Shown here: positions 8,892-63,306 of the stretch, one piece after another
Numbering within the stretch: the first letter of the stretch is position 1
How the letters are laid out: every line of letters begins with the position of its first letter
Origin: Candidatus Pacearchaeota archaeon
Lineage (GTDB): Archaea > Nanobdellota > Nanobdellia > Pacearchaeales > GW2011-AR1
Assembly: GCA_050303855.1 (NCBI GenBank)
Contig: JBNLCO010000010.1
Coordinates: forward strand, 158,207 to 222,206
Direction: 5' to 3'
DNA length: 64,000 nucleotides
Made by a program: the position numbers and the translations under genes
The notes under the pieces: model-generated
Database searches by the model: none
What the model was told of the DNA's origin: nothing
The model's input: the letters and a program-made list of their open reading frames with translations, nothing else

Positions 8892-9772
8892 AATCCAAAC
8901 CATTTGTAAATATTGTATTGCTAAATTTAAACAATTATTTGGATACAGTAGAATGTTTGGATTCGATTAAAAATATAGAATATAAGAAATGGGGCATAAC
9001 GCTTTTAGATAATGGATCTACAGACAATTCTTTTGATAAGTTGAAGAAGAAATATGGAAAGAACAAGAAAATAAAATTCATGTCAAACAAAACAAACTTA
9101 GGATTTGCTAAAGCAAACAATCAGGCTATGAAAAAGGACCTATTTGACTCTGATTATTTTCTTTTGTTAAATAATGATACAATTGTTAAGAGAGATTTTT
9201 TAACAAAACTTGTTCATGAAGAAAAAGATCTAATTTCTCCTTTAATTTACAACTACTATTCTAAGAAAGAATTGAGTAGAAACGATTTTCCAGGAAAATT
9301 CAATCTTTTTATTGGAGGGGGGAGAGCAATCAACCCTGTGAGAGATAAAACAACCAAGGTAGATTATGCTTCAGGGTGTTGTTGGTTAATAAAGAAGTCA
9401 TTATTCAAAGAAACAAACGGGTTTAACGAGGAATATTTTGCATATAATGAGGAAGTTGAGTGGGCGTATAGGTTGAGAAAATCAGGCTATCAATTTTACT
9501 TGTCCGGCCATTCAAAGATCTGGCACAAAGGGGCAAAAACCTCTTCTAAAATATCAGGTTTCAAAATGAAATTTATGAACCGAAATATAATCTGGTTTGA
9601 AAAAAAATATGCCGGATGGAAATATCCTATTTTCCTAATATATTTATTTTTATATAGGGTTCCAAAGAACATTATTAAGATTATCGTCTCGAGGAAAGAA
9701 GTTGTTAAAAACATAAAGAGTTTTTTTTCAGGTCTTGGAGAAGGTTTATTTTCAAAAGAGGTAAATCAATAA
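8888..9772 (+). CDS. family 2 glycosyltransferase
   Basis: VNIVLLNLNNYLDTVECLDSI...LLDNGSTDNS is the GT2 N-terminal pattern. A 4-nt overlap with the upstream gene suggests an operon. Confidence 0.7.
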   Translation: MKSKPFVNIVLLNLNNYLDTVECLDSIKNIEYKKWGITLLDNGSTDNSFDKLKKKYGKNKKIKFMSNKTNLGFAKANNQAMKKDLFDSDYFLLLNNDTIVKRDFLTKLVHEEKDLISPLIYNYYSKKELSRNDFPGKFNLFIGGGRAINPVRDKTTKVDYASGCCWLIKKSLFKETNGFNEEYFAYNEEVEWAYRLRKSGYQFYLSGHSKIWHKGAKTSSKISGFKMKFMNRNIIWFEKKYAGWKYPIFLIYLFLYRVPKNIIKIIVSRKEVVKNIKSFFSGLGEGLFSKEVNQ

Positions 9773-9796
9773 AAACCCTTTTTTACTGAAGAAAGT

Positions 9797-11602
9797 ATGT
9801 GTGGAATAAACGGATTTAATTTTTTAGACAAAAAAACTCTAAGATCTATGAATGGGTCTCTGAGTCATAGGGGCCCTGACGGATCAGGAGAATTCTTTGA
9901 TACAAGGGGCAAAGTTTCACTCGGGCATCTAAGACTTTCTATTATTGACTTATCTAAAAAAGGATCTCAGCCAATGACTTATACCCACAAAGGGAAGAAG
10001 GTAGTTATTGTATTTAATGGGGAAATCTATAATTTTATGGAAATAAAAGAAGATCTCTTGAAAAAAGGACATAGGTTTAAATCAAATTCGGATACGGAGA
10101 TTATAACTGCAAGTTATTTGGAATGGGGAAAGGAATGTGTAAAGAAGTTCAACGGTATGTGGGCTTTTTGTATCTATGATCCTCAAAAAGAAATCTTGTT
10201 CTTATCCAGAGACCGAATTGGAAAAAAGCCAATTTACTATTACTTTGATAAGAAGAAATTTATTTTTTCATCAGAAATAAAGGGTATATTGGAACATAAA
10301 GTAAAGAAAAAAATAAATCCAGAGTCATTGGATCTTTATTTCTCTCTAGGATTCATCCCTGCTCCTTATTCAATTTATGAGAATATATTTAAGCTAGAGC
10401 AAAGACAATCAGTGATATTTGATTTGAACAAGAAAAAACTTACAAAAGAATATTATTATCACTGGCCCGAATATTCACCAAAGAGAAATAAAGATAAGAA
10501 TATCGAAGAAATAAAGAATCTTCTGAGGGACTCGGTTAAGAGGAGAATGATTTCTGATGTCCCTTTAGGCGCTTTCCTTTCTGGAGGTCTCGATAGCTCG
10601 ACAATAGTTAACTTTGCAAAGAAACTAAACCCAAACATAAATACTTATTCAATTGGATTTGAAGGCAAATATGATGAAACCCAAAACATAAACCAAATAG
10701 TTAAAAAATTCAAGACAAAACACCACCATAAATATTATCACGAATCTGATTTCAAAAAAGGTTTAAAGAAAATATTTTATTACTATGATGAGCCTTTTTC
10801 GGATCCTTCCATGTTTCCAACTATATTTCTTTCAAGGTTTGCTCGTCAAAAAATCACAGTATCTCTTAGCGGAGATGGAGGGGATGAAATTTTTGGAGGT
10901 TATCCAAGGTACAAAAAAGCAAAACAACTTGAGAAATTAATGAAAATCCCAAGATTTTTAAGAAAAATTGTTTTACATCTCCCCCTGCCTTATTCTCTCA
11001 AAGAAGGAATCAAATTAAGTTTGAATAAAAAGGATTTGTTCTATTCTGAAGCAAGAAGTGATTTCTATAAACCATTCGTTACTAAGAATCTGCTTCAAGA
11101 AAAATTAGCATCGTGTCTTAAAAGAACAAAAGGCAACCTTGTAGAGGCAGTTAGGCTGATGGACATTGAATTTTATACTCTTCCGGATAATTTCTTAACT
11201 AAGGTAGACCGAGCTTCTATGGCCAATGGATTAGAGATTAGATGTCCTTTTTTAGATTACAAAATTATAGAATACTCTATGAAAATTCCAACAAAATATA
11301 GGGTTTCATTATTTAGAGATAAAATTCTTTTTAAGAAAATTATAAAGAATTTCTTGCCCAAAAAGATTATCTCACAAAAAAAGAAAGGATTTACTCCTCC
11401 AATAAATGATTGGATTTCTCGAAAAGAGTACGGAGATACACTCAACAAAATCATATCTGAATTGGAAAAAAATAAGGTGTTGTCTGGAGATTGGATCAAT
11501 TTTTATAAAAAAAGGATACTGGATAGAAACTCTCTTGTTGAAAATAACTATAAAATAAGACTTTATTTGTTCTATGAATGGTATAAACTTTGGATTAAAT
11601 AG
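9797..11602 (+). CDS. asnB: asparagine synthetase B-type glutamine amidotransferase (sugar-amidating?)
   Basis: MCGINGF N-terminal nucleophile and the SGGLDSS PP-loop, 601 aa. Confidence 0.8.
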   Translation: MCGINGFNFLDKKTLRSMNGSLSHRGPDGSGEFFDTRGKVSLGHLRLSIIDLSKKGSQPMTYTHKGKKVVIVFNGEIYNFMEIKEDLLKKGHRFKSNSDTEIITASYLEWGKECVKKFNGMWAFCIYDPQKEILFLSRDRIGKKPIYYYFDKKKFIFSSEIKGILEHKVKKKINPESLDLYFSLGFIPAPYSIYENIFKLEQRQSVIFDLNKKKLTKEYYYHWPEYSPKRNKDKNIEEIKNLLRDSVKRRMISDVPLGAFLSGGLDSSTIVNFAKKLNPNINTYSIGFEGKYDETQNINQIVKKFKTKHHHKYYHESDFKKGLKKIFYYYDEPFSDPSMFPTIFLSRFARQKITVSLSGDGGDEIFGGYPRYKKAKQLEKLMKIPRFLRKIVLHLPLPYSLKEGIKLSLNKKDLFYSEARSDFYKPFVTKNLLQEKLASCLKRTKGNLVEAVRLMDIEFYTLPDNFLTKVDRASMANGLEIRCPFLDYKIIEYSMKIPTKYRVSLFRDKILFKKIIKNFLPKKIISQKKKGFTPPINDWISRKEYGDTLNKIISELEKNKVLSGDWINFYKKRILDRNSLVENNYKIRLYLFYEWYKLWIK

Positions 11603-17329: not shown

Positions 17330-17417
17330 TGCGCGGACCGGGGATCGAACCCGGATCAACTGGTCTCTTCAGACAACCTGTGGAAGCCAGTTATTCTAAC
17401 CATTAAACTATCCACGC
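17330..17417 (-). tRNA. tRNA-Gly(UCC) with a 16-nt intron at canonical 37/38
   Basis: Hand-folded. Acceptor GCGTGGA/TCCGCGC, D-stem GTTT/GAAT, anticodon arm ACTGG-CTTCCA[CAGGTTGTCTGAAGAG]A-CCAGT, T-arm CCGGG-TTCGATC-CCCGG, discriminator A. The intron pairs CTTC/GAAG with the loop, consistent with a bulge-helix-bulge. Confidence 0.75.
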
Positions 17418-19149: not shown

Positions 19150-19264
19150 TAAGACGGCCATAGTAGCGATGGTTCCACCTGGTCTCTTTCCGAACCCAGA
19201 AGTTAAGCATCCTACGTTGTTACCGGTACTGTCCTGCAAGATGGGAAAGTAACAAGCTGTCCTA
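19150..19264 (+). rRNA. rrf: 5S ribosomal RNA (standalone, not linked to 16S/23S)
   Basis: GGCCATAGTAGCGATGGTTCCACCTGGTCTCTTTCCGAACCCAGAAGTTAAGC matches the conserved 5S loop B/helix III/loop C region. Helix I pairs TAAGACGGC with GCTGTCCTA. A T8 run follows. Confidence 0.75.
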
Positions 19265-20005
19265 CTTTTTTTTATAGAATTTATTTAATATTTGAACATA
19301 TTCTTTATTTATTCCTTCTAACCTAAAAATGACTACTTTCTTGAACCCAGATTTTTTTACAAAGTTCAGATCTTTTTCTAAATTCTCTGGAGAGAGGATT
19401 GGTTCGTTTCCAAGAATCCCTATCGCAATTGTCCCGAGAGATATAGAATGGTTCTCTTTATTTCTCAGCCCCATTAAATTAGATTTAACCCTTTTATTAA
19501 AAGCTCTTGGAAACATACTTGAATACCACATTATGCTCCGCTCATAATTGAGATTATAATTTAACCCAATTAACTTCATAAATTTTGAAACAAATGCGAA
19601 GGGATATTCTGCGGTAGTTACTCTTTCCTTGTTGTTCTTCAAGAATTCTAGGATAAGCTTTTTGTTTTTCTTAAAGTGAAAAATATTTCTAAAGTACATC
19701 TTCCATTTATTTCTTAGAGGCAGCTCCAGATCAATAAGAAGATGATTTTTTATGGAATTTAATTCATGGAATAATTCCTTAAGATCTTCTGTGTTGGAAA
19801 ATGGAGAAATCCAATAAGAATTTTTTACAATAGGCCAATATGCTACTTCAAGATCTTTTTTGTAAGACTTAGCTATCTTTTCGTATTTTTGGAATTCATT
19901 AATTGATTTAGAAGCAATAAATATTTTTGTTGGATATTTTATTAATTTTAGTTTAGAAAGATTTTCTTCATTTGGAAATTCTTCATAAAATTCTATCTCC
20001 ATCAA
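19262..20005 (-). CDS. hypothetical protein (247 aa)
   Basis: Long ORF with no recognisable motif. Its stop overlaps the 5S 3' end by 3 nt. Confidence 0.5.
   Translation of the reverse strand: MMEIEFYEEFPNEENLSKLKLIKYPTKIFIASKSINEFQKYEKIAKSYKKDLEVAYWPIVKNSYWISPFSNTEDLKELFHELNSIKNHLLIDLELPLRNKWKMYFRNIFHFKKNKKLILEFLKNNKERVTTAEYPFAFVSKFMKLIGLNYNLNYERSIMWYSSMFPRAFNKRVKSNLMGLRNKENHSISLGTIAIGILGNEPILSPENLEKDLNFVKKSGFKKVVIFRLEGINKEYVQILNKFYKKK
19266..19273 (+). terminator. oligo-T terminator after 5S rRNA
   Basis: T8 immediately 3' of 5S helix I. Confidence 0.4.
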
Positions 20006-25346: not shown

Positions 25347-25419
25347 AAAGAAAAGGCATAAGCTATTGCTCTTTGCCTTTTCTAAGTTAGAGATTGGTAT
25401 AGAAGAAATTAATAGGAGA

Positions 25420-26283
25420 TTAATTTGTATTAGTTTGGGTTGTTGATGGATTGCTTAATACTTCAAACCTTTCTTTAATCATTGTTATGGAAAGCTTCTT
25501 GTGGGTATTGGAGGCGTATCCCATATTAACAACAACCAAATATTGTCCTGGTTCAAGTTCCAGCCCGATATTTTTGCCTTGTACAAACTTTTCAAAACGA
25601 TTATTGTAACCGTTACCTCTTATCTGAAAAGTTTCAACTTTCAAGACCTTTCCAGTTGAAGCGTCATATATTTTTGCATTAATACAAGGTATATCTTTTG
25701 ATAACATTTTAATATAAAATGCAAAGTTTATTTCTTCTCCTTGAACGAATGATCTTTTCTTGCCTTGGAATTCATCTATTTGAGCAAGACCATCTCTGTT
25801 AAAATCAGAATACCAATTGTACATGAAAATATTGCCCAAAGTGGCATAATCCTTTACTCCAAAAGTATTTGAGGGTATGTATGCAAAGTTTACTAACTCA
25901 TTTTGAGTATACTCTGGAAGAGTATGGGAGACAGAAACGGGGGTGTGTATAACGTTAAAGTCGCCTGGATCTTCGTTTGCCCAGGTGTATCCTTCATCAG
26001 GGTACACTCTCCTAGTGCCATCAACTTCTAAAACATGAGTATTTGGATAGTTATGCGTTACATTTATGTTTTGGGTGGAAGTATTTGAAGCGGTAGTAAT
26101 CTCCATAGTGTATTCCATTTCACCAGATGTTGTAAGAGCCTTTCCCAATACACGGGAAAATTTATTTGCACCATTTTCTACTAAAAACTCTCCAGCAATA
26201 ATTTTCGCCTGAGTTTTAACTGATTGCGCACTTGTACCTAGTACAAGTAGAACCATTACTGAAATAAAAACTAATTTTTTCAT
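25420..26283 (-). CDS. secreted hypothetical protein
   Basis: MKKLVFISVMVLLVLGTSAQS signal peptide. Confidence 0.5.
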   Translation of the reverse strand: MKKLVFISVMVLLVLGTSAQSVKTQAKIIAGEFLVENGANKFSRVLGKALTTSGEMEYTMEITTASNTSTQNINVTHNYPNTHVLEVDGTRRVYPDEGYTWANEDPGDFNVIHTPVSVSHTLPEYTQNELVNFAYIPSNTFGVKDYATLGNIFMYNWYSDFNRDGLAQIDEFQGKKRSFVQGEEINFAFYIKMLSKDIPCINAKIYDASTGKVLKVETFQIRGNGYNNRFEKFVQGKNIGLELEPGQYLVVVNMGYASNTHKKLSITMIKERFEVLSNPSTTQTNTN

Positions 26284-26364
26284 CTTATTTAATTTTTGTT
26301 AATAAATGTTATTTTTAATAAAAAAGAAACCTCCAGAGAGGTTTCATAAAAATTGCTTAAGAAA

Positions 26365-40260: not shown

Positions 40261-40364
40261 GATAAAAAATTTTAATTGTTAATAATAATTGGTCTTAATC
40301 ATAGCGGTCTTAAGGTTAATCTTCTAATATTTCTTCTAATATTAATTGGGATAAAATAATCAGG

Positions 40365-44782: not shown

Positions 44783-44864
44783 AACTTTTTTTTTAATTAT
44801 TTGTAAAAAGAAAGATTACCTCATCAAGGTAATCTTTCATAATAGGTTGCTTTGGAATTATAGC

Positions 44865-46042: not shown

Positions 46043-47242
46043 TTAAAAAATTTCAGCAAGATCTTTTGTTAACTGACTACGTAAAGCATTACCTTTTTGC
46101 ATTTTTTCATTTTCTTTCTCAACATCTTTATTTAGGGTGTCAATTTGGTTTGCTTCATCTTTTAATACAGGAGTAATTTCATTTATGAATGTACGGTAAT
46201 TGTCAACTGCGCTTAAAGTGTGTTGAACGGCTTCAGTAATTTTCTGCATATCAATACCATTTTGGGCAGCAGTTTTGAACACTTCCACAACAGTTTCATT
46301 CAATTCTTTTGCATTCTCAACAAGCATATTGCCTGTTAAATCGTTCAGTGCAGCAAGGGCGTCGTTTACCTGTCTTGCATCTTTAACTGCCATTTTCTGT
46401 GTAAGGGCAATTTTTAAAGTATCAATGGTCATATCAGAATTCCTAATACCATTTATTAATTGACGATTAGTACGAACAATTACCTCAAAACTCATGATTC
46501 CTTGGTTTTTCACAACGCGTCCTTTTTCAAGAGCATTTATCCTTTGAGTTACGGGGAATAACATCTCTTGTTGTAGAAGATCTGCCCACTCTGTATCAGA
46601 GGCATTAGCTATTTCTTTTTCCAACTTTTGTTGCAATAATTTCGCAAACACTATAGCTTTTTTTATTGCCTTAATTTGATTCCTCATGTTTTCCTTCTCA
46701 CCATTAAGAGTAGTATTATTTCGTTCCAATTTCTCTTTTCCTTCTTTAAGGCCGTCCATAATGTCCTTAATTATTACTTTTGATGACTCATACTTCTCCA
46801 AGTATCGGCTTAATACATTTGGTCCAAAAGTTCTTCTTGTAAACCTTGCAGCCATCCCTCTTAATCCCCTGCCATTCCAATTAAATGTGTGAGGGTTCAA
46901 TGCATCAACCTGGTCCCTTAATCCCAAAAGACTATCAACAATTACCTTGTTACCGGCGCCTGTCATCAATTCTTTAATCTGCCTGTCAAGGAGTTCATTT
47001 GATCCGGAAGTCATAGCTGTATTTCCAATAAAATCTATACTATTGGTCTTATCAGAAGTTTTTACATCCTTATCTATGAGTTTTTGGAAAAATTGGTCTA
47101 CTTTAGGAGACACTTCCTTCACAATTTCAGGATCAATGTCTTCAACTTCAACCGTTTCTCTAAAATCGAGATCAGAATTGTTTTTTACATCGTTTTTAAT
47201 CTGATCTGCACTTGGAAATTCCATTACTTGTTTTTTTGCCAT
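46043..47242 (-). CDS. TelA-like (toxic anion resistance / KlaA) family protein
   Basis: About 400 aa, all-helical with long coiled coils. Length and architecture fit TelA/YaaN. Followed by an XpaC-like membrane protein as in Bacillus yaaN-xpaC. Confidence 0.45.
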   Translation of the reverse strand: MAKKQVMEFPSADQIKNDVKNNSDLDFRETVEVEDIDPEIVKEVSPKVDQFFQKLIDKDVKTSDKTNSIDFIGNTAMTSGSNELLDRQIKELMTGAGNKVIVDSLLGLRDQVDALNPHTFNWNGRGLRGMAARFTRRTFGPNVLSRYLEKYESSKVIIKDIMDGLKEGKEKLERNNTTLNGEKENMRNQIKAIKKAIVFAKLLQQKLEKEIANASDTEWADLLQQEMLFPVTQRINALEKGRVVKNQGIMSFEVIVRTNRQLINGIRNSDMTIDTLKIALTQKMAVKDARQVNDALAALNDLTGNMLVENAKELNETVVEVFKTAAQNGIDMQKITEAVQHTLSAVDNYRTFINEITPVLKDEANQIDTLNKDVEKENEKMQKGNALRSQLTKDLAEIF

Positions 47243-48143: not shown

Positions 48144-49697
48144 TTATTGAACAAGTACAAACTCCACCCTCATCATCCTTGCCCGATAACTTCTTGAGGA
48201 AGTGCTTTCTCCTGGTTTAAGTCTTGGAGGCTTTTCATCTGCATAACCCTTTGCATGAAGTCGATTTGAATCTATTCCATGAATAGCTATGAGATGCTGG
48301 CGAACCACATCTGCTCTTTCTTGAGAGAGTTTCAAATTAGCCTGTTTATCTCCTGAAGCAGTATGCCCTTGAATTAATATCCTGTACCCCGGATAATTGT
48401 TGGTTATAAGCATTGCCACTTCATTTATTATTTCTTCGGCTTGGAATTGTAATTCAGAGGTTCCTGCCTGGAAAGGAATATCTTGAACCCTCAAGTTTCC
48501 TGCCTCTGTCATATTGCCCCATGCTTTATCCTTGAGAGCATCAAAAGTGATGTTCTTTCCAGTAGTTGACCCTACAACAGCTCCTCCTGATCTAATCAAC
48601 CCTTCAATAAAACTACTGTTTATTATACTGTATGGATCTTCTACTTCTGCATCAATACCTACAGAATGGTGCACATTATTCCAAGCATAAATTGAATTAA
48701 CAATTCCCTCATCAATATTCAGCCCAGCATTATTTGCGGTATTTATTCCGAACAATTGCAAAGCATTATCGTGTAAGGTATACAAGCGAATATTCTTAAT
48801 CAAACTCTCGGTTTCACTTTTGGAAGTTCCAGCATCAATTTTAATCATTTTGAATCTCTCCTCATCATGACTATTGTAATATTCTACAACCTCATAATAA
48901 GTTTTTAATATTGTGTTAACCTCTTTCTCATCCCTAAGAATGCTCTTTTGGCTAAACACAAAAACATCCACAATATAGTTACGGAATTTTTCAGAACTCC
49001 AAACTTTCTTCATCCCAAGTTTTTCTTGTGCCTGGGAAACCTCTGGTTCCCACAATAAGAATAAATTCCCTAAAGATTTATCTTTTTGGGCTTTTTTAGC
49101 CAAAGAATAAACCTCTTTGGAACCTCCAAGACGAACAACAGCACAATTTCCATTGATCAAATTTTCCAAATCAAAATCAACGGCCGTCAAATTAAATAAG
49201 TCTTCACTTGGCGAATTGTCAGTTAAAACAAACTTCAGATCTGGGTCATCAAGATCATTAACCTTGTTAAATTGGAAATCCGGAAATGCCATAATTGCAT
49301 CAGCTCCAACCGATTCACATATTCCCCCTACAATCTTTCCAGGGAAATGATGTTTGAATCCTACACGTTTGTATGTGCTTATGGGAATTGCAATAAATTG
49401 GTATTCTCCTTTGTCAAACTTTTCCAATCTGGTTTCATAAGCCCCTCCATCATCAACAAACTTCAAAACAATGCCCTTGCGTGCTAAACGTTTCTTCATT
49501 TCGTGGGATCGAATCAGAGAATATCCGGCATATCCATCCCCTGCCCAAACAATCGTTTTGGCGGAAGAATTGGAGTCGGAAGATATTAGGCTATCCCGTT
49601 TCTCTTTCCATTGAGGGAAGAATTTAGCAAACAATAATCCAAGGGTTCCCAATATTAAGATTATAATAAAAATATAACCTTTTGATTTTCTTTTCAT
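48144..49697 (-). CDS. membrane-anchored SBP-like domain fused to C-terminal OmpA_C-like (peptidoglycan-binding-type) domain
   Basis: N-terminal TM anchor. C-terminal YRILIQGHTASGDKQANLKLSQERADVVRQHL is OmpA/MotB C-terminal domain-like. Confidence 0.55.
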   Translation of the reverse strand: MKRKSKGYIFIIILILGTLGLLFAKFFPQWKEKRDSLISSDSNSSAKTIVWAGDGYAGYSLIRSHEMKKRLARKGIVLKFVDDGGAYETRLEKFDKGEYQFIAIPISTYKRVGFKHHFPGKIVGGICESVGADAIMAFPDFQFNKVNDLDDPDLKFVLTDNSPSEDLFNLTAVDFDLENLINGNCAVVRLGGSKEVYSLAKKAQKDKSLGNLFLLWEPEVSQAQEKLGMKKVWSSEKFRNYIVDVFVFSQKSILRDEKEVNTILKTYYEVVEYYNSHDEERFKMIKIDAGTSKSETESLIKNIRLYTLHDNALQLFGINTANNAGLNIDEGIVNSIYAWNNVHHSVGIDAEVEDPYSIINSSFIEGLIRSGGAVVGSTTGKNITFDALKDKAWGNMTEAGNLRVQDIPFQAGTSELQFQAEEIINEVAMLITNNYPGYRILIQGHTASGDKQANLKLSQERADVVRQHLIAIHGIDSNRLHAKGYADEKPPRLKPGESTSSRSYRARMMRVEFVLVQ

Positions 49698-49790
49698 AAC
49701 GATTTTAATTTTAATTGTTAATTTAAAATCAAAAAGAAGGAAAGGCTAACCATTCCTCCTTTTTGGGAAACTAATTTATTTTGCAGTATC

Positions 49791-50562: not shown

Positions 50563-52275
50563 TTATTGATATAATGATGGATCAAATTCAAGTGATTCTG
50601 ACTCAAGATTTTTTATCCTAAAAACAACCCTGAAATTTTCAAGCCACTCATCTTTAGTTGAGGGTTTTGGATACTTTGGAGAATCCACCCCACGTCCAGT
50701 TGCATGCATTTGGGTTTTGTCTACAACGATGCCTCTTGTCTTTGCGTATTTTACAAATACTTCTTCAACCATTTTTGCTCTCTCTACTGAAAGATTCTTT
50801 GCAATTTGAGTTATTTGGGCAATCTCTTGATTTGAAGCACCACTTTTCTTTGCTTTCAATATTCCTCCTCTATCAGAATGACCTTCTATAACAACTATTG
50901 CACCTGCATAAGTTTCCATTATATCAAGAGCTTTGGCAAATTGAGTTTTGTACTCTTCAACTGTAAAATCCTGTTGATTTGGTTTGAAATAAATTTCAAC
51001 AACAAACAAAGTGTTATCTGTTTCCCAGGTATCTGACTCCGCTTTAATTTTACTTTCTATAACTTGAGCTACTTTCTTTTCATCAAATTTTGGCTGTGAC
51101 TTAACTACAGGAGTTGTGGTTGTTGCAGTTGCATATTTAAGACCTGACTTCAAAGAACTATAATCCCAGTTCGCCTGCTTAAGATTAGCGTTTCCTGTCA
51201 AAAGACCCATTTTAGCAAAAGAGGATTGAATTTCAGAATTCAATTTATCAAAGTTCCTAGTTGTTCCTTTACCTGTAAAGAAAGCAAAGTTTCCATTAAA
51301 ACCGGCAAATTCGCAGTCACCAATCATTGCTTTTGCATCTTCACTCATAGAAGTTGTTCCAAAAAGCAGACCAGAAGATTTTGACATTAATTGTTCGTAT
51401 TTAGATTGCTGAGCACTTTTATTTTTTAACAGATCGCTCAACTTTTCTTCTGACATCATTAATGCCTTTGTTAATTTTTGTACTTCTGATTTATGGCTGT
51501 TGTAATAATCTTCCCTCACAGCATATACATCTGCAATTATTCTGCTTGCGGATTTGGTGGAAACGTAAATCTTTGCTCCTTTGACTGAACCATCAGCACC
51601 AGTGCCAACGTTTCCATTTGAAGTTAAAGCTAAAGCATCGGGGATTATACAAAATGCAGCATCCAATGAAGGATCACCAATGAAGGATTCAACAGGATTA
51701 CTTTTTCCAAAATCATTATATGACAATTCTTTTGTCCATTTAAATGAAACAGTATTTAACCTTCCCGCCTTATTAAAAATATTTGCTGCATAATCCATAT
51801 GAGGGCCATATAGCTGCAATGCAACTGTTTTGATATTAGAAGGGGTTTTTCCACTTCTTACAACAAGGGCATCTCCGCCTACAGACCAGGTTAATTTATA
51901 AAAAACAACTAAACCTGTACCTGCTTTTTGAAATGCTTCTGCGGCTTCCTTAACCATCCCCATTGTTCCTCTCAAGTACGGGGTTTTTCCATTAATCACA
52001 TCCTGAACCTGCTTTTTGAAATCATTTTCACAAAATAACTCCACATTTAACCCATTAGACGAAAACACCCCTTCCATTTCTCCATAGATTGTTAAAATAT
52101 CTCCACCCCAGGTGATTAAAGGAACAGGAATTTTAGATCCCATTTGAACTGGTTTTAAAGAAGTATTTACCACCTGCGATAAAGGTTTTGCTGTTTCAAA
52201 ACTTTGCGCAAAAGTATTTCCAAAGAATAATGTTGTTAAGGTCATAATAAGACCAAAAATAATTAATTTTTTCAT
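50563..52275 (-). CDS. secreted SBP-like domain fused to C-terminal OmpA_C-like domain
   Basis: Signal peptide ..NTFAQ. C-terminal VVIEGHSDRGG...NQEIAQITQIAKNLSVERAKMVEEV is OmpA_C-like. Confidence 0.55.
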   Translation of the reverse strand: MKKLIIFGLIMTLTTLFFGNTFAQSFETAKPLSQVVNTSLKPVQMGSKIPVPLITWGGDILTIYGEMEGVFSSNGLNVELFCENDFKKQVQDVINGKTPYLRGTMGMVKEAAEAFQKAGTGLVVFYKLTWSVGGDALVVRSGKTPSNIKTVALQLYGPHMDYAANIFNKAGRLNTVSFKWTKELSYNDFGKSNPVESFIGDPSLDAAFCIIPDALALTSNGNVGTGADGSVKGAKIYVSTKSASRIIADVYAVREDYYNSHKSEVQKLTKALMMSEEKLSDLLKNKSAQQSKYEQLMSKSSGLLFGTTSMSEDAKAMIGDCEFAGFNGNFAFFTGKGTTRNFDKLNSEIQSSFAKMGLLTGNANLKQANWDYSSLKSGLKYATATTTTPVVKSQPKFDEKKVAQVIESKIKAESDTWETDNTLFVVEIYFKPNQQDFTVEEYKTQFAKALDIMETYAGAIVVIEGHSDRGGILKAKKSGASNQEIAQITQIAKNLSVERAKMVEEVFVKYAKTRGIVVDKTQMHATGRGVDSPKYPKPSTKDEWLENFRVVFRIKNLESESLEFDPSLYQ

Positions 52276-53851: not shown

Positions 53852-53989
53852 TTTTTTAAAATTTTAATTGTTAATAATTTGATCTAATTCCGTGGATAAA
53901 AATTTTGGGTTTCTAATTTTGGTAATTTAAATCAGGGAGAATGATTTTGAAATTGATTTTTCATTTCTTTAAAATATTAATTGTTAACT

Positions 53990-56566: not shown

Positions 56567-56821
56567 TTTTATTTGTTTTAAAAATTGTTAATAATTTATT
56601 GGCAAATTAATTTACCGAGTTTTCTAAAATAATTCTTTTTCCCTCATAACGAGAGTTGTAAGAGGCTGCCATAATCTGGCCCTTTTTGTTTACAAGTATA
56701 TTGAAACCAAGATCAATCTTTTCTTTTGGAGAAATTTTCATATCAATCAGATTAAAAGTAAAAAACAAGACCAAAATAGAATTTACCTTAGCCTTGTTAA
56801 AAAATAATCTAAAGGGGAGAA

Positions 56822-57388
56822 TTATTTTGATTCCAAAAGGATATCTCTTATAACTGCGAGTTTGTTTGTGTAAGCCTCACTGAGAGGATCTTTTATCTTG
56901 CACAACTCCCCAACTTTTTTATCTATTCCATAAATTTTAACCAGGTGTGCTTCCTCTCTACTTTGATCACAATTTCCTACTAACAAAGTATGAAGCAGGT
57001 TAAGTTTTGTGTCCAACATCTTGTAAAAATCCAAGTATAGATACGCCTTCTTAAGGATGTGACCCAGAACCGGAGAACCTTCTCCTCTTTCTTCGTCACA
57101 ATACCAGCAAATTTGGATTTTGTCAGGGATGCAAGAATCTATTTCGTCACATTCACCAAGAATTTTAATTAAGGTATAGAAATTTGAAAGTGTTTCATGG
57201 TTACAACTTTCCCAATAGACTTTTATTGTTGTCACTTTTCTATTCATAACAGCCGTTTTTATTCCATGGTGTAGATCTGCCCAAGAAGGCCCATAGTTCA
57301 CCCCCGGTTCTTCAAGAAGATAAACTACCTTATCTTCGATTTTAAATAAACCAAAATTTTCAACTGTTTTTGAATCCAAGTTTTTCAT
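56822..57388 (-). CDS. hypothetical protein (Cys/His-containing)
   Basis: 188-aa ORF. Confidence 0.4.
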   Translation of the reverse strand: MKNLDSKTVENFGLFKIEDKVVYLLEEPGVNYGPSWADLHHGIKTAVMNRKVTTIKVYWESCNHETLSNFYTLIKILGECDEIDSCIPDKIQICWYCDEERGEGSPVLGHILKKAYLYLDFYKMLDTKLNLLHTLLVGNCDQSREEAHLVKIYGIDKKVGELCKIKDPLSEAYTNKLAVIRDILLESK

Positions 57389-57427
57389 TTTATTTTGTAT
57401 TAAGTGTTAATTACTAAATTTAAGAAA

Positions 57428-57462
57428 AAAACCGCAAGCGCATCATAGCCTTGCCCGTGTCA
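57428..57462. repeat. intergenic repeat copy A (AAACCGCAAGCGCATCATAGCCTTGCCCGTGTCAA)
   Basis: Near-identical to copies at 58393 and 60795. Contains GCAAG/CTTGC hairpin. On the transcribed strand it is followed by GGTTTTTTT. Confidence 0.7.
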
Positions 57463-57475
57463 AACTAACTACATC

Positions 57476-57706
57476 CTATTTTCTCCATCTTTCCGTTATC
57501 CACCCAAAAAGGAAGATAATGAAAATGAGGAACAAAATTCCCAAAAAGATAAACAAGAATTTCTTGAAAGAATCGTATTGGGAAAGAATCGCAAGTGCAT
57601 CTTCTCCTCCAACACCCAACTCAGAATACAATGCCTTGTTTTGTAGAAACAGGAACAAAATAAAACCAATTACTCCTCCAAACGCCATCACAAAAATCTT
57701 CTTCAT
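57476..57706 (-). CDS. small membrane protein (2 TM)
   Basis: 76 aa, hydrophobic. Confidence 0.4.
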   Translation of the reverse strand: MKKIFVMAFGGVIGFILFLFLQNKALYSELGVGGEDALAILSQYDSFKKFLFIFLGILFLIFIIFLFGWITERWRK

Positions 57707-57713
57707 TTCTTAC

Positions 57714-57917
57714 TTATTTTGAATTAAATATATCATCTTCTATAGTGGGCGTATCGAAAGTATCTGTATTGATCTTTTCGTAAATAGTCCCATTTCTTTT
57801 CTGGTACTCATTGAGTCCATCATTAGTTCTTGTACCTGAATTTCCAAGCACACAAAGCAATATAATTCCAATAATTGCTAATATAATAATTAAGATGTTT
57901 TTGATTAAATTTTTCAT
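57714..57917 (-). CDS. small membrane protein (1 TM)
   Basis: 67 aa. SD-containing leader upstream. Confidence 0.4.
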   Translation of the reverse strand: MKNLIKNILIIILAIIGIILLCVLGNSGTRTNDGLNEYQKRNGTIYEKINTDTFDTPTIEDDIFNSK

Positions 57918-57958
57918 TTTTTTATTCTCCTTTTTATATTAACTTAACATTAAAATTG

Positions 57959-58010
57959 GAAACCGCAAGCGCCTACAGATGATTTCTGTACTTAGCCTTG
58001 CCCGATTCAA
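57959..58010. repeat. intergenic repeat copy B (degenerate, with insertion)
   Basis: GAAACCGCAAGCGCC...TAGCCTTGCCCGATTCAA shares both ends with copies A, C and D. Confidence 0.5.
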
Positions 58011-58033
58011 TCTCTTTTCAAAATTCCTGTTTT

Positions 58034-58348
58034 TCAAGCTTTTAAATAATCGATAAAAAACATCCATAAAAGTATAAACAAACTAAACAATCCAACCTTC
58101 CATATCCAATCTAAGTAATTTGATCCTGAAAATTTTTTTCTTATCAAGTCATATGCTCCTTTAAAGAGGAATACGATCAAAAATATTGAATACCCTAAAC
58201 AAAAAGAGAAATTTGCGTCAGACATATTTGACTCTTTCAAATTTAATAAATAATCCTGGAAATCCCCTTTTATAAAAATTACCAAGTAAATTATGAACGA
58301 GGAGGCAAATATGCTAATTTTAACTAAATTTTTAAGTTTTGTTTTCAT
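58034..58348 (-). CDS. small membrane protein (3 TM)
   Basis: 104 aa. AGGAGAT leader. Confidence 0.45.
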   Translation of the reverse strand: MKTKLKNLVKISIFASSFIIYLVIFIKGDFQDYLLNLKESNMSDANFSFCLGYSIFLIVFLFKGAYDLIRKKFSGSNYLDWIWKVGLFSLFILLWMFFIDYLKA

Positions 58349-58392
58349 AATAAAATCTCCTATAATTTAATTATTAATTACTCAATTAAAAG

Positions 58393-58428
58393 AAACCGCA
58401 AGCGCATCATAGCCTTGCCCGTGCCAAC
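58393..58428. repeat. intergenic repeat copy C
   Basis: AAACCGCAAGCGCATCATAGCCTTGCCCGTGCCAAC. Confidence 0.7.
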
Positions 58429-58442
58429 ATTTGAAATAAATG

Positions 58443-59213
58443 TTAAGAATCATCTTCCTCATCATCCGGACTTTTTATTCTTGTAAACCACATTAAGGAA
58501 GGGGAGGATAGAAGAAATGTTCCTGTATGGGGGATAGCTTTGTCACTAGGTCCGAAGGTGATGTCTATTGGTGTGGGCGTTATTTTTGGTGAACTGATTA
58601 TGAAACGGTAAGTTACTTCCAATCCAACATACATTGCAACGGCTTCTGTTTTATTTTCAACTACCCATCCAGGAAAATAATCTCTTCCTTCGGTGGCCAT
58701 CAATTTGATCAAATTTTCGTGAATTTTGCTTTTTGAAAGAAGATGCAGTTCCTGCATTAAGCTTATATACCTTTTATGTTCTTCTGAAAAATTTGGGGCA
58801 AGGTGAGAAATATCTATAGCCAAATCAAGGTCATAGTAAATTGCTGTTTTTCTTTCGCTCATTCTTTTCATCAACCAATATAATGAGCTTCCAGCTAATT
58901 TTGCGTTAGTGATCCCATAGGCCTTAAGATATTTTAACACTTGAATCAACAATTTCAATTCTCCTTTATTGAAAAACCAAGAAATTCTTGTTTTCCACCA
59001 TAATATATGTATAAGGGGTATCAGAAATAACGCAACACCAATACTAGGGGTAATGATTTTTATTGTGTCTTCTCCAGAGGCAATAAAAATAAAGTCAATT
59101 GATCCAAATAACACAATTGGAATAATTAAGGGCAACAAATCCCTAAATCCCATTATAAGAACATTTATTCCGGGAAATAGTTTTTCTCTAAGAATATCTC
59201 TTTGGATTTTCAT
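58443..59213 (-). CDS. membrane-associated hypothetical protein (256 aa)
   Basis: N-terminal TM helices. Acidic C-terminus DDEEDDS. Confidence 0.5.
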   Translation of the reverse strand: MKIQRDILREKLFPGINVLIMGFRDLLPLIIPIVLFGSIDFIFIASGEDTIKIITPSIGVALFLIPLIHILWWKTRISWFFNKGELKLLIQVLKYLKAYGITNAKLAGSSLYWLMKRMSERKTAIYYDLDLAIDISHLAPNFSEEHKRYISLMQELHLLSKSKIHENLIKLMATEGRDYFPGWVVENKTEAVAMYVGLEVTYRFIISSPKITPTPIDITFGPSDKAIPHTGTFLLSSPSLMWFTRIKSPDDEEDDS

Positions 59214-59249
59214 AAGTCTTTTATTATTTCTATTAACAAGGTTACGTAT

Positions 59250-59789
59250 TTACAAGTGAATATTCTTAACCTCTTCCTCTTCTTCATCCTTATTAATCAA
59301 AGGCTTGGTTACAAATACTATCCAGGAACAATAGATGGATGAAATCCCCCACAAAGCTGCCCAAAAAGATGGGCCGAGACCAACTTTCAATCCCTCTCCC
59401 CCTACAAGAAAGAAGATAGATACATTTCCAATTGAAAATAAAGTTAATATTGCCAAGGAAATTTTAAATGAAGGGCTTTCGGTTAATTCTTCTAGATTGG
59501 TTGTTGCGGTCCCCGGATTTTTTTCAGAATTTTTAATTTGCTTATTAAGATTGAGTTCCTTCAATTTATTTAGGGGTTTAATTAGAAAAACCACAATACT
59601 ACAAAATGCAGAAGTCATAAATCCAATAAAGTATATTGCAACCCATAAGAAATGTAAATTTATGTTATTCCTTTGCCAAATAAGGCAAACCAACAAGGAT
59701 AACGAAAGCGCAAACAATGCCGATATAAAAAGAGCTACCTTGAAAGAAATTCTTTCTGTTAACTCGCCGTATGAAATTTTATTTTCCAT
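59250..59789 (-). CDS. polytopic small membrane protein
   Basis: 179 aa, 4 TM. AGGAGAT leader. Confidence 0.5.
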   Translation of the reverse strand: MENKISYGELTERISFKVALFISALFALSLSLLVCLIWQRNNINLHFLWVAIYFIGFMTSAFCSIVVFLIKPLNKLKELNLNKQIKNSEKNPGTATTNLEELTESPSFKISLAILTLFSIGNVSIFFLVGGEGLKVGLGPSFWAALWGISSIYCSWIVFVTKPLINKDEEEEEVKNIHL

Positions 59790-59860
59790 AATATAATCTC
59801 CTATTATTTTAATTATTATTTTTTAAACAAAAGATTCTGTGTTTTCATTTTATTTTGTTT

Positions 59861-60064
59861 TTATATTAATAATTTTCTTAAGTAATTTAATATTAAAATT
59901 GAGCTTGGAAATGTAACTACAAAAATAGAGAGTGTTAATTGTACTTTTTCAATTGGAATATTCTTTCCAATTATAACACCTAATGCAATCATTAAGAGGA
60001 ACATCATAATAAATACTCCTTTAGGGAATCCTTTGCTAGAAGTTGGGTTTTTCATTCTTCTCAA
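59861..60064 (-). CDS. small membrane protein
   Basis: 67 aa, 2 TM. Confidence 0.35.
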   Translation of the reverse strand: MRRMKNPTSSKGFPKGVFIMMFLLMIALGVIIGKNIPIEKVQLTLSIFVVTFPSSILILNYLRKLLI

Positions 60065-60072
60065 ATTTTAAG

Positions 60073-60279
60073 TTAATACTCAATCATCCACCTTTTTTGC
60101 CAACCTAAATTAGTCCACCCTATACTAAAAGCTCCTATTGTAGCCTTAATTTTTACTGGATAAAGAATGTTTTCATCCTTAGGTGTGTTCAAAATTATAT
60201 CTTTGCGATTTAAAGATAGTTTTGAAACCCTTTTTCTTCTCCTTATTCGGATTTTTGGTTTTTCGTTTAAATTTTTCAT
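60073..60279 (-). CDS. small basic hypothetical protein
   Basis: 68 aa. AGGAGAT leader. Confidence 0.35.
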   Translation of the reverse strand: MKNLNEKPKIRIRRRKRVSKLSLNRKDIILNTPKDENILYPVKIKATIGAFSIGWTNLGWQKRWMIEY

Positions 60280-60459
60280 AATAAAAATCTCCTATTATTT
60301 TAATTTGTTAATGCACAGAGACATTCTCTGTTAAAGACTCAATAATCTCTCTTTCATTTTCCCGATTAATAAGTACCAAATCTTCTTTGCTTGGTAATTC
60401 TGAAACAAGCTGAGAAATTTGTTTAAATCTTTCTTCATCCATTTTTTAATCTCCTATTT

Positions 60460-60759
60460 TTAATCTTTTGAAATAATTTCTCCAGTTTCTACATCCACAT
60501 AAATTATAGGCTTGAGATCCCATCCAACCCACATATTGGCTTTCCTACCTTTTGTCCAATAGTCATCTACGGTATTTTTTCTTTCAAGAGTCAAGCCTTT
60601 TTTCTTCAACATCTCCTCCGTCCATACCTGGCCAACTTCCAGTGATTGAGTTCGTGCAAATTCATTTTGTTGTTCTATATGCCGAAGATTGTTATATTCT
60701 TCAACAGTTTCAGGAACTTTTTTTTCTCCTTTTGCAATTTTATCTTCAAATTCATACAT
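60460..60759 (-). CDS. hypothetical protein
   Basis: 99-aa ORF. Confidence 0.4.
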   Translation of the reverse strand: MYEFEDKIAKGEKKVPETVEEYNNLRHIEQQNEFARTQSLEVGQVWTEEMLKKKGLTLERKNTVDDYWTKGRKANMWVGWDLKPIIYVDVETGEIISKD

Positions 60760-60794
60760 AGCTTTTATTTTTAATTATTAATTACTAAATTAAG

Positions 60795-60830
60795 AAACCG
60801 CAAGCGCATCATAGCCTTGCCCGTGTCAGC
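60795..60830. repeat. intergenic repeat copy D
   Basis: AAACCGCAAGCGCATCATAGCCTTGCCCGTGTCAGC, preceded by TTAATTACTAAATTAAG as in copy A. Confidence 0.7.
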
Positions 60831-60850
60831 ATTTAAAATAAAGACTAAAC

Positions 60851-62098
60851 CTATCTTATTGGCAATTCTAGTTCCCCTCGGAGATAATCAAACAATTTTC
60901 CTTGTTCAAAGGCTGTGAGGCAATTTTGAGCAAATTTCGGAAGATGACTTCCAAGCCAAGTACTATTTTTCTGATTTGTGCCTTTGTACCAATAGGCATT
61001 AGTCGGGAAATGAGAGATCAAATTTAAATTTTTCTTTATATTGGAAATTGTATCCCCTATTAACTCTCCAAAACCGGGAAAAATCCCATTTCCACTCCAC
61101 CTCTTTAACATTGTTAAATAAGGTATATTTTTCTTTAATCCAATTGCAATTGGATCTATTCCCGCAATCCAATTGGGATCTGCCCATTCTTTTGAAGCGA
61201 TAGAATGATAAGGAGTTGCTATAATCTCCAAATCATAGTAAGGTTTTGTTATAGGCATTATCTCTTTGTAAGATAAAGGAATTGGATCCTTGCCAATATA
61301 ATTTTCAATCAACCTCGTCCTCCGGTTATATAATTGATAAAATTGGGCAAATTCCCAGGAACCTACGAAATCGCAAATTAATTGCAGAGCCTCATCAGGT
61401 TCAGGATCATCGTTTGTAGTTGTATCCCTCAATTTGTCTTTTCCCAAGAACCAAACAGGCATTGCAACAAGAATTTCAGGCAAATTGCGTGCTGGGATTA
61501 CCAGAGGGATCTCCCAAATATATCTTTCAAGGTTGTGCTTACAAACCAAACCGATGGGTTTAATGAAATCAGATTTGTTATTTATTCCGCTAATGGAATT
61601 GAAAGCTATAGCAATGCTATGTAGTGCTGTAAGGTTTTTCCCACTAAATCTGTTTAGCTCCATAATCTTTGTGGAAAGCCTAAACACATATCTCATACTG
61701 ATAAAAGAATCTTTTAAGAGATTAAGGTGTTTTTCTAAAGAAGGATCTTCCGAAATCTTGTTACCTAGAATCATGCTAATTTCTTCATCACTTTTATCCA
61801 AGGTTACCCCCAGATCAAATAATTGCAAAAAATGTTCTTTGTAAAAGCCTTCCTGAAACATGGGGAAAACTTCAAAGAATTGAGCCACTCTGTCCGGTTC
61901 TATTTCCCAATTAGGAATTTTATCCAGAGGGTTATTTGCAAAGGCCTTTTCTATTAGAACGGGATCAACAAGTTTCTGCCTGCGTTGCATTTCGGGAGGC
62001 AACGTGCACAAATATGTGAGAGCAACACTTTTTACAATTCCAGTATTATCTTCTGCAAATAAAACTGGGAGATCATTTTTTTCATCTAAATTTTTCAT
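60851..62098 (-). CDS. hypothetical protein (415 aa)
   Basis: Long ORF with no recognisable family. Confidence 0.5.
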   Translation of the reverse strand: MKNLDEKNDLPVLFAEDNTGIVKSVALTYLCTLPPEMQRRQKLVDPVLIEKAFANNPLDKIPNWEIEPDRVAQFFEVFPMFQEGFYKEHFLQLFDLGVTLDKSDEEISMILGNKISEDPSLEKHLNLLKDSFISMRYVFRLSTKIMELNRFSGKNLTALHSIAIAFNSISGINNKSDFIKPIGLVCKHNLERYIWEIPLVIPARNLPEILVAMPVWFLGKDKLRDTTTNDDPEPDEALQLICDFVGSWEFAQFYQLYNRRTRLIENYIGKDPIPLSYKEIMPITKPYYDLEIIATPYHSIASKEWADPNWIAGIDPIAIGLKKNIPYLTMLKRWSGNGIFPGFGELIGDTISNIKKNLNLISHFPTNAYWYKGTNQKNSTWLGSHLPKFAQNCLTAFEQGKLFDYLRGELELPIR

Positions 62099-62129
62099 AT
62101 CCTTAATTTTTAAATTGTTATTATTTATG

Positions 62130-62381
62130 TTAATTATTTCTTGAGTTTCTTCTCCAAATCTTTACAAAAACATACGAGACAAGGTAAAAGAACAAAAAAG
62201 TAGCAATTATAATTGACCACGATGGCAAAAATAAAGAAAAAATTGAGGCTATAAACCCTCCAATTAAGCCCATAATTATCCCTAGGGGAAAGAACGAAAC
62301 GGAAACCATAACCAAAATTAAAGTCAACAAAGCTGCAATGAAATAATCGGGCAATAATTTTTTTGAGTTTTGTGTTTTCAT
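62130..62381 (-). CDS. small membrane protein (2-3 TM)
   Basis: 83 aa. AGGAGAT leader. Confidence 0.4.
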   Translation of the reverse strand: MKTQNSKKLLPDYFIAALLTLILVMVSVSFFPLGIIMGLIGGFIASIFSLFLPSWSIIIATFLFFYLVSYVFVKIWRRNSRNN

Positions 62382-62433
62382 AATAAAAATCTCCTATAAT
62401 TTAATTATTATTTTTTTAATTTTAATTGGTCTG

Positions 62434-62880
62434 TCATTCCTTTGTTGATTTTGTGGACTTTATACAAAATGCCCAATAGTAAATTAGGACTAAAAACAAA
62501 ATCGTGCAGAAAAAGGCTCCAGCAGAGTAAAATAATCGGTTATAATACGATGAGAACTCATCGCGTGCAATTCCGATAAATCCAAGATCCACTAATCCAA
62601 CTAACACTATTACAAGAGCAAGAATAAACATTTTGGAAGAAAGAATTATCTTTTTTGGTTCAAGATCTTTGTTAGTTTTTTCTTTCTTGTTCCAAACAAA
62701 ATCAACCAAGTGACCAAATAAGAACACAACAAGAAACAATGATCCAAGTAGACCTGTTAGCCCGGTAAATTGAATTATTTTTATCAATAAGGTATTTTCT
62801 ACATGATTTAGGCATATCGCAGAAGATACACCCATAGCAAAAAGGATTGCTAGTACTATTAATAACGATTTTAATTTCAT
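62434..62880 (-). CDS. polytopic membrane protein
   Basis: 148 aa, 4 TM. Conserved upstream motif at 62881-62910. Confidence 0.5.
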   Translation of the reverse strand: MKLKSLLIVLAILFAMGVSSAICLNHVENTLLIKIIQFTGLTGLLGSLFLVVFLFGHLVDFVWNKKEKTNKDLEPKKIILSSKMFILALVIVLVGLVDLGFIGIARDEFSSYYNRLFYSAGAFFCTILFLVLIYYWAFCIKSTKSTKE

Positions 62881-63306
62881 ATCTTTAAATTTTAATTTGT
62901 TAATATTCTAATTAATTTTATACTAAATTTTGTTAAAAATTTCTTGTAAATATGTGTAAGTATTAAATGTAAATTTGGGCTCCTTAGGGCTTTTTCACCT
63001 TATTTTGAGGTATTTCGGCCAGAGCGTAGATTACATCTTTTTGAGAATCAGATAACCAAAAGGTATTTCGCCTTTTTGTATCTTAGCGTATTGTAACTCT
63101 TTGTATCTAAAGCGATACGAGAGTTATTTCACTTCATTTTTTGCTTTTGCAAATGGTTTCAATGTAGTGAATTGTAAATCTTTATTGATCAAAAACCAAG
63201 TTTTTGTTAAAGATAAACGAACTAAATTGTAAGTATATTTGTTACTTTTTAGTGGTTTATAACTGTTTCGGTTGGCTTTGTGTTGGTGATTTACGGAGTT
63301 AGTTGT

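Follow-up and report, generated by a model that had tools for sequence, protein, structure and literature searches.

A repeated hairpin-bearing spacer in an archaeal island of orphan genes as a candidate terminator-plus-promoter module

Why should nearly the same intergenic sequence recur between genes that are unrelated to one another? The question is raised by an island of small genes at 56.8-62.9 kb of a 64,000-nt stretch of contig JBNLCO010000010.1 (the window, at its full length). In this island a short element recurs in copies that we designate A to E. All copies lie on the (-) strand, which is also the strand of every gene in the island. The near-identical spacers are 75-85 bases long and contain a GC-rich hairpin, a T-run and the motif that usually precedes genes in this genome. 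Judged by its sequence, the repeat is one version of the genome's ordinary gene-boundary layout, reused at five consecutive unit ends. We give somewhat better than even chances to the proposal that it is a composite gene-boundary module, in which the hairpin and T-tract would end one transcription unit and the adjacent AT-rich motif would start the next. The locus is known from one metagenome-assembled genome (MAG) and one sample.

A 35-mer representing the element was found at 57429-57463 without mismatches and at 58393-58427 and 60795-60829 with one mismatch each, in a single orientation, while 100 shuffles gave an expectation of 0 matches. Within it a 31-nt core, CACGGGCAAGGCTATGATGCGCTTGCGGTTT, is identical in the three spacers (57429, 58393, 60795), loop and bulge included. 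A gapped pattern recovered a degenerate copy, D (57963-58002), whose loop has 22 nt instead of 6. The initial annotation had reported three near-identical intergenic copies and a degenerate one, and these searches bear it out. Five occurrences of the 8-mer CAAGGCTA were counted in the 64-kb window, all of them at the sites of copies A to E. Copy E (56764-56798) was missed by the sequence profile (nhmmer). It has CAAGGCTAAG in common with copy D, and its outer G-C pair is replaced by A-U; it is a possible fifth, degenerate member of the family. The copies stand 0.4-2.4 kb apart with genes between them.

The repeats were also present in an independent Logan assembly (run SRR36185838), the contigs of which were identical to the window at every overlap and ended or started inside copies C, B and A, the three identical ones. 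A de Bruijn graph is expected to break at an exact repeat of 31 nt. Since the Logan contigs match the window and break in the copies, the repeats are real and not an artefact. The order given for the 2.4-kb and 1.0-kb segments, however, relies on the MAG assembler's resolution of the copies.

The repeated unit proved larger than the roughly 35 nt originally proposed. In pairwise local alignments the whole spacers matched over 64-75 nt at 92-97% identity. The B-C alignment spans 75 nt with 69 of 73 positions identical, the A-C alignment 75 nt with 64 of 66 and three short indels, and A and B are identical at 56 of 61 positions. This homology runs from shortly past the upstream stop codon to just short of the downstream ATG. 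The repetition is thus one of spacers and does not extend to the flanking genes. Module copy C (60763-60842) fills the spacer from the 415-aa gene (stop 60851) to the 99-aa gene (start 60759). Its hairpin at 60800-60820 is followed by GGTTTCTT and then by TAATTAATAATTAAA, 10 nt ahead of the ATG. Copy B (58366-58440) separates the 256-aa gene (stop 58443) from the 104-aa gene (start 58348), with the hairpin at 58398-58418 followed by GGTTTCTTTT, TAATTAATAATTAAA and a ATAGGAGAT leader. Copy A (57388-57462), with the 76-aa gene (stop 57476) before it and the 188-aa gene (start 57388) after it, has its hairpin at 57434-57454, then GGTTTTTTTCTT and, 10 nt ahead of the ATG, TAATTAACACTTAAT. The degenerate module D (57918-58033) separates the 104-aa and 67-aa genes; its basal stem (57965-58001) is followed by GGTTTCC and a AAGGAGAA leader. 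The candidate copy E directly follows the 188-aa gene, with AACAAGGCTAAGG contained in a 15-bp hairpin (G-U pairs counted) and TTTTACTTTT after it. Copies A, B and C, unlike D, have either AATTTAGTAATTAA or AATTGAGTAATTAA after them.

Read on the coding strand, the consensus is (T/C)TG(A/G)CACGG-GCAAGGC-TATGAT-GC(G)CTTGC-GGTTT(C/T)n. Every copy starts 13-32 nt past the upstream gene's stop codon and has T-rich sequence after it; the T-run is found on the coding strand only and is missing from the opposite strand. The RNA fold predicted for the element has a stem of 7 bp, in which one G is bulged, and an energy of about -8 to -9 kcal/mol. The earlier description of a hairpin followed by a T-rich run was upheld for the coding-strand hairpin and its GGTTT, although the stem comprises these 7 bp and not GCAAG/CTTGC alone. 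In copy D the 22-nt loop adds a 6-bp helix and brings the fold to -14 kcal/mol. Shuffle z-scores of folding were -2.3 for copy B and -1.8 for copy D. An alignment fold of the five copies gave the same 7 pairs, including one compensatory double change, G-C to A-U, in E. The basal stem is retained in D and E despite their differing apical parts (a 6-nt loop, the added 6-bp helix or the 15-bp hairpin). At least 5 T residues fall within 8-9 nt in copies A, B and E, whereas the tracts of C and D are weaker (TTTCTT and TTTCC).

The host DNA is an archaeal chromosome. The window holds the S13-S4-S11-RNA polymerase subunit D cluster (uS13/uS4/uS11) together with DUF655, and the best scores were those of archaeal models. 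Its GC content is 33%, and it carries a lone 5S rRNA, found in the Rfam search at the gathering threshold. Composition and gene content indicate that the host probably belongs to a DPANN-like lineage. Because the host is archaeal, the promoter half of the module is possible only as an archaeal TATA-type motif, and the TTGACA and TATGAT look-alikes are irrelevant. Sigma-70-like sites were not enriched in the window, and a sigma-70 promoter within the element was rejected on account of the archaeal host and of an unsuitable spacing.

The same arrangement is found at gene boundaries elsewhere in this genome. Generally a stop codon is followed at once by a hairpin and T-run, and then by TTATTAACAATTAAA 8-13 nt before the next ATG. 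Strong hairpins with T-runs (-9.6 to -17 kcal/mol) stand directly after the stop codons of unrelated window genes at 25420, 26365, 30699, 44865 and 49791, all on the (-) strand (25380-25420, 26326-26345, 30659-30682, 44810-44838 and 49730-49770). The motif TTATTAACAATTAAAAT is enriched in the window, with 13 matches against 3.7 expected, for instance at 37353-37369, 40269-40285 and 53861-53877 on the (-) strand. At about 15 genes, most of them without a Shine-Dalgarno site, 8-13 nt separate the end of this motif from the ATG. We read TTATTAACAATTAAAAT as the probable archaeal core promoter region for leaderless or near-leaderless mRNAs in this lineage. The module's TAATTAATAATTAAA matches TTATTAACAATTAAAAT at 13 of 15 positions, and a motif of this type precedes the ATG by 10 nt in A and in C and by 17 nt in B, where an AGGAGAT leader is interposed. 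This ATAGGAGAT leader (AGGAGAT) stands directly upstream of five array start codons and has 7 copies in the window against 0.9 expected; a 39-aa open reading frame (ORF) outside the array, at 29556-29675 (-), carries the same leader. The original idea of a terminator joined to a promoter is largely right once put in archaeal terms, as it fits the hairpin and T-run at gene ends, the AT-rich motif near the next start and the genome-wide layout, but the bacterial promoter logic attached to it does not apply to an archaeal host.

The genes between the copies are 13 same-strand (-) ORFs of 44-415 aa in 56822-62880, 8 of them with membrane segments predicted from hydropathy. This replaces an earlier count of 11 short ORFs, mostly of 60-180 aa. 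Transcription unit 1 (60851-62880) comprises genes for proteins of 148 aa with four transmembrane (TM) segments, 83 aa (2 TM) and 415 aa, and ends at copy C. Unit 2 (58443-60759) has six genes (99, 44, 68, 67, 179 and 256 aa), three of them with the ATAGGAGAT leader, and ends at copy B. The lone 104-aa gene of unit 3 (58034-58348), with about three predicted membrane segments, lies between copies B and D. Unit 4 (57476-57917), between D and A, consists of a 67-aa (1 TM) and a 76-aa (2 TM) gene, and unit 5 (56822-57388), between A and the candidate E, is a single gene for a 188-aa soluble orphan. All units are on the (-) strand, and units 1 to 5 contain 3, 6, 1, 2 and 1 genes, respectively. Upstream of the first array gene lies a 426-nt spacer (62881-63306) whose fold, on either strand, is better than that of shuffles (z -2.8 and -4.0). 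It contains short direct repeats of GGTATTTCG (63009 and 63062) and of TTTGTATCT (63075 and 63100). Rfam gave no match to this spacer, which is a candidate for a regulatory region or a non-coding RNA.

On their sequences the array genes are not paralogues. All-against-all BLASTP gave just weak, composition-type matches among the membrane proteins, which runs counter to the notion that the small ORFs were themselves part of the duplication. Most array ORFs have host-like codon usage and a clear frame signal. Searches with the 188-, 256- and 179-aa proteins, whose codon usage is host-like, found zero homologues in 5.8 billion or 1.84 billion sequences, and among the four proteins tested only the 415-aa protein had relatives (12). 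Pfam, NCBIfam, PHROGs and PADLOC returned nothing meaningful for the array proteins, and the 415- and 256-aa proteins had no match among viral contigs. The initial annotation had held that a purely local repeat without expression, or ORFs without homologues and coding signal, would count against it. The repeat was found only here and three of the four proteins tested lack homologues, but the coding signal is present and host-like.

How would these observations fit together? We propose that the GC-rich 7-bp hairpin and oligo-T tract on the coding (-) strand would end one transcription unit, either by terminating transcription or by protecting the mRNA 3' end. The AT-rich start-proximal motif right after the hairpin, a probable archaeal TATA/initiation region, would launch the next unit. 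Members of one hairpin family stand at the ends of five consecutive units in this island, whose orphan genes mostly encode membrane proteins. Strand specificity, position, the keeping of structure over sequence in D and E, and the genome-wide layout all argue for the terminator/promoter reading. Since three spacers are 92-97% identical while their flanking genes are unrelated, it appears to be the module itself that was copied or exchanged. The simplest route would be recombination between copies when a unit inserts, as in the phage cassettes known as promoter early stem-loops (PeSLs). A circle carrying one module and its cargo, on recombining with a resident module, would give exactly the direct-repeat arrangement seen here. 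We regard this recombination step, which is drawn by analogy, as tentative and on balance doubtful. It is more doubtful, and in our judgement unlikely, that recombination takes place at the hairpin core, as part of a cassette system in a small-genome archaeon by which self-contained units of promoter, orphan genes and terminator are captured, excised as circles and exchanged; such a system would be a cellular archaeal functional analogue of the phage PeSLs or of integrons, without attC sites.

Several observations weigh against the proposed module. The hairpin's free energy (about -8 to -9 kcal/mol) is modest, copies A and C fold no better than shuffles (their z-scores are not significant), and in copies C and D just TTT precedes a C, which is a weak T-tract. 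A terminator scan of 44-64 kb gave 11 candidates against 10.8 in shuffles and hence no enrichment, and enrichment at 24-44 kb was only mild (20 against 11.7). The terminators of four model archaea consist of U-tracts and lack hairpins (PMC8716108). At genes with a Shine-Dalgarno site the AT-rich motif lies 17-20 nt from the ATG, a distance that does not suit both a leaderless promoter and a used Shine-Dalgarno site at once. The identity of A, B and C in loop and flanks exceeds what a structural signal needs and may reflect recent copying. The termination and promoter roles are proposed from sequence, and recombination from a single genome; no other strain or sample showed a different array.

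Other explanations for the recurrent spacer differ in what they make of its palindrome. The core could be a site for a tyrosine-type recombinase, dif-like or att-like, with imperfect inverted arms of 9-10 nt around the 6-nt TATGAT spacer. The arm-6 nt-arm geometry is indeed readable in the sequence, all copies are direct repeats around gene blocks of 0.3-2.4 kb, and the 31-nt core, loop and bulge included, is identical in three copies although the genes differ. The same geometry, however, occurs in any terminator hairpin, and D and E keep the stem with apical parts of 22 nt and longer, a misfit to a fixed crossover spacer. Identity also runs far past the core into the promoter-like part. No Pfam recombinase family was found among the approximately 33 window proteins scanned (about half), which include all those of the array and its flanks. 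We therefore hold such a site to be improbable, as is the associated idea that each unit is a small integrated module flanked by direct site repeats. An integron-like array of the type called a cluster of attC sites lacking integron integrases (CALIN), with the repeats as attC sites, is barely credible, even though short same-strand ORFs and a repeated folded element at intervals below 4 kb recall one. Integrons, mostly CALINs, have been reported in Archaea, including the Nanoarchaeota, the GTDB phylum labelled there as the DPANN group (PMC9668308). A regular-expression search of both strands of 56700-62950 nevertheless found 0 RYYYAAC...GTTRRRY (R''/R') pairs at a distance of 47-157 nt. The 7-bp stem sits in a hairpin of 21-37 nt where an attC site has a bipartite palindrome of 55-141 nt, and the units hold 1, 1, 2, 3 and 6 genes with promoter-like motifs of their own. 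In view of these three features, the gene-cassette array suggested at the outset is not supported as an integron-type one. The scanned proteins include no integrase either, although CALINs lack IntI by definition. The palindrome might instead belong to a small non-autonomous mobile repeat of the repetitive extragenic palindromic (REP) or miniature inverted-repeat transposable element (MITE) kind, inserting at gene ends and clustered here by chance. It is a short, imperfect, GC-rich and intergenic palindrome in an AT-rich genome, with several copies whose near-identity suggests recent spread. Yet all copies fall within 4 kb, and mismatch, gapped-pattern and profile searches found no copy in the remaining 60 kb of the window. 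There are neither terminal inverted repeats nor target duplications, and the identity covers the whole spacer, generic promoter motif included. We rate this account, too, as having only a slim chance.

Two further readings, each very improbable in our estimation, concern regulation. One takes the palindrome as a DNA operator: a dimeric regulator, such as the winged-helix-like protein encoded just upstream (63307 onward), would bind it and control the following promoters jointly. An inverted repeat does lie about 10-15 nt upstream of an AT-rich promoter-like motif in four spacers, and the gene at 63307 onward weakly matches a phage transcriptional-regulator family (E = 8e-4). That assignment is weak, however, with no Pfam or NCBIfam match, and D shifts the half-site spacing by 16 nt yet keeps its pairing, while E changes both outer bases compensatorily. 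Because pairing is kept in D and E despite these changes, a folded single strand is favoured over a duplex operator. The other reading, which the initial annotation had also raised, is that the element is a small structured RNA or part of one, either a small regulatory RNA or a cis-regulatory 5' leader of the downstream gene. The hairpin is conserved, its flanks are conserved over 64-75 nt, and B and D fold somewhat better than shuffles. Against this, Rfam at the gathering threshold found only the 5S rRNA and tRNAs in the whole window and, at E values up to 5, nothing relevant in 56.5-63.4 kb. The folds of A and C do not exceed shuffles, and the copies share one simple hairpin with a single compensatory pair. 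Exact-pattern scans yielded no homologue elsewhere from which covariation could be built. The exact gapped pattern AACCGCAAGCGC-N4-30-GCCTTGCCCG matched 18 genome contigs, 16 metagenome contigs and 0 viral contigs, always singly. All but one of these matches lie in DNA of 49-69% GC, the exception being a Treponema contig of 45% GC. As single matches, nearly all in GC-rich DNA, they are attributed to chance. A looser scan of viral contigs gave 56 single matches, none of them module-like by profile. Three other candidates were tried and rejected. A CRISPR (clustered regularly interspaced short palindromic repeat) array has repeats of 24-40 nt and spacers of 25-50 nt, whereas the window contains no tandem array and the copies stand 0.4-2.4 kb apart with genes between. 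For a C/D-box or K-turn RNA, the loop AUGAUG is lost in copy D, and CUGA occurs in copy C only. A target of a diversity-generating retroelement was dismissed because the 3' ends of the genes are dissimilar.

The closest known counterparts of the proposed terminator-plus-promoter module are the PeSLs of T4-type phages, composite terminator/promoter motifs that lie between ORFans, recombine and form mini-circles; their recombination, their mini-circles and their terminator and promoter activities have been demonstrated experimentally (PMC2839356, PMC4122927). In both cases a short stem-loop terminator and promoter fill the spacer from stop codon to ATG, which for the present element is a statement about its sequence. 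Both are repeated directly between unrelated ORFan genes in a variable region, so that recombination would insert, delete or circularise ORFan units without disturbing their neighbours. The present case differs in belonging to an archaeal chromosome and not a phage, and in bearing an AT-rich archaeal-type motif in place of a sigma-70 early promoter. It has only 4-5 copies, within 4 kb, and its recombination and activities are proposed where those of the PeSLs have been demonstrated. By analogy, it might be described as an archaeal-chromosome variant of PeSL-like regulatory cassettes, a description that draws on one locus in one MAG.

Bacterial intrinsic (Rho-independent) terminators resemble the first half of the module in their GC-rich stem-loop, the T/U tract immediately after it, and their place on the coding strand just past the stop codon; function would be orientation-specific in both. 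They differ in host, since in the archaea studied U-tracts are sufficient and hairpins show no enrichment (PMC8716108). In addition, two copies here have short interrupted T-tracts, and one hairpin sequence is reused at several unrelated genes. The attC/CALIN arrays, archaeal ones included (PMC9668308), are alike in their tandem same-strand small ORFs, their foldable repeats less than 4 kb apart and a cargo mostly of unknown function. Unlike them, the present module has neither R''/R' core sites nor a long bipartite palindrome with extrahelical bases, and its units are multi-gene, carry their own promoter-like signals and have no integrase among the proteins scanned. The REP/BIME (bacterial interspersed mosaic element) and MITE repeats are likewise short, GC-rich, imperfect palindromes at gene ends that can terminate transcription or stabilise mRNA, but they are dispersed in tens to hundreds of copies, whereas the present copies cluster at consecutive boundaries and include the downstream promoter region.

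If the module both ends and starts transcription, an archaeon would be using bacteria-like hairpin terminators, which model archaea seem not to need. Were it also a recombination handle, it would offer a simple route by which orphan genes, with their expression signals included, could be added to small archaeal genomes. The same mechanism has been put forward for variable regions in T4-type phages. Should the unlikely cassette system prove true, the duplicated terminator modules on a bacterial-looking contig described below (L039) would hint at a wider habit of small-genome microbes.

The 415-aa protein (60851-62098) belongs to a family of 13 members with about 36 invariant residues. Its predicted structure is confident (pLDDT 79), with a helical N-terminal half and an alpha/beta C-terminal half, and had no specific match in the PDB. 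The inspected contigs with relatives differ in gene neighbourhood and carry bacterial genes, such as those for peptide deformylase, an extracytoplasmic function (ECF) sigma factor and type I restriction systems; the family occurs in the present archaeon and on bacterial-looking contigs near restriction-modification genes. On contig L039 the relative is flanked on both sides by another duplicated module, which measures about 95 nt and spans the stretch between stop codon and terminator. Its copies (9745-9860 and 11208-11325) show 87% identity across 118 columns and are distinguished by a compensatory insertion of a base pair in the stem. A palindrome upstream on this contig overlaps the terminator arm. 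Next to another relative, contig L036 has perfect 30-nt intergenic direct repeats (8013-8042 and 8832-8861) and a second shared piece, CCTCTAGAGGTAARGATTGTGA (8818-8838 and 9775-9797), which give its spacers a mosaic character. We regard the repeats of these two contigs as anecdotes of the same pattern around the only traceable gene of the array.

Other parts of the window showed further features. The GC-stem hairpins and T-runs found after stop codons are bacteria-like and contrast with the Term-seq results for four model archaea (PMC8716108). A tRNA of 88 nt lies at 17330-17417, its anticodon not assigned by ARAGORN, and the lone 5S rRNA (19150-19265) has no adjacent 23S rRNA. Among the window's gene products are also a protein bearing the shoulder and repeat domains of the major vault protein, one of the TelA family and two with OmpA domains (30699-33302, 46043-47242, 48144-49697 and 50563-52275). 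These vault-domain, TelA and OmpA genes are unusual for an archaeon and were possibly acquired from bacteria. Finally, a 174-nt tandem repeat of about 3-4 copies (34159-34889), with 62-74% identity, lies inside a 556-aa gene (33436-35106).

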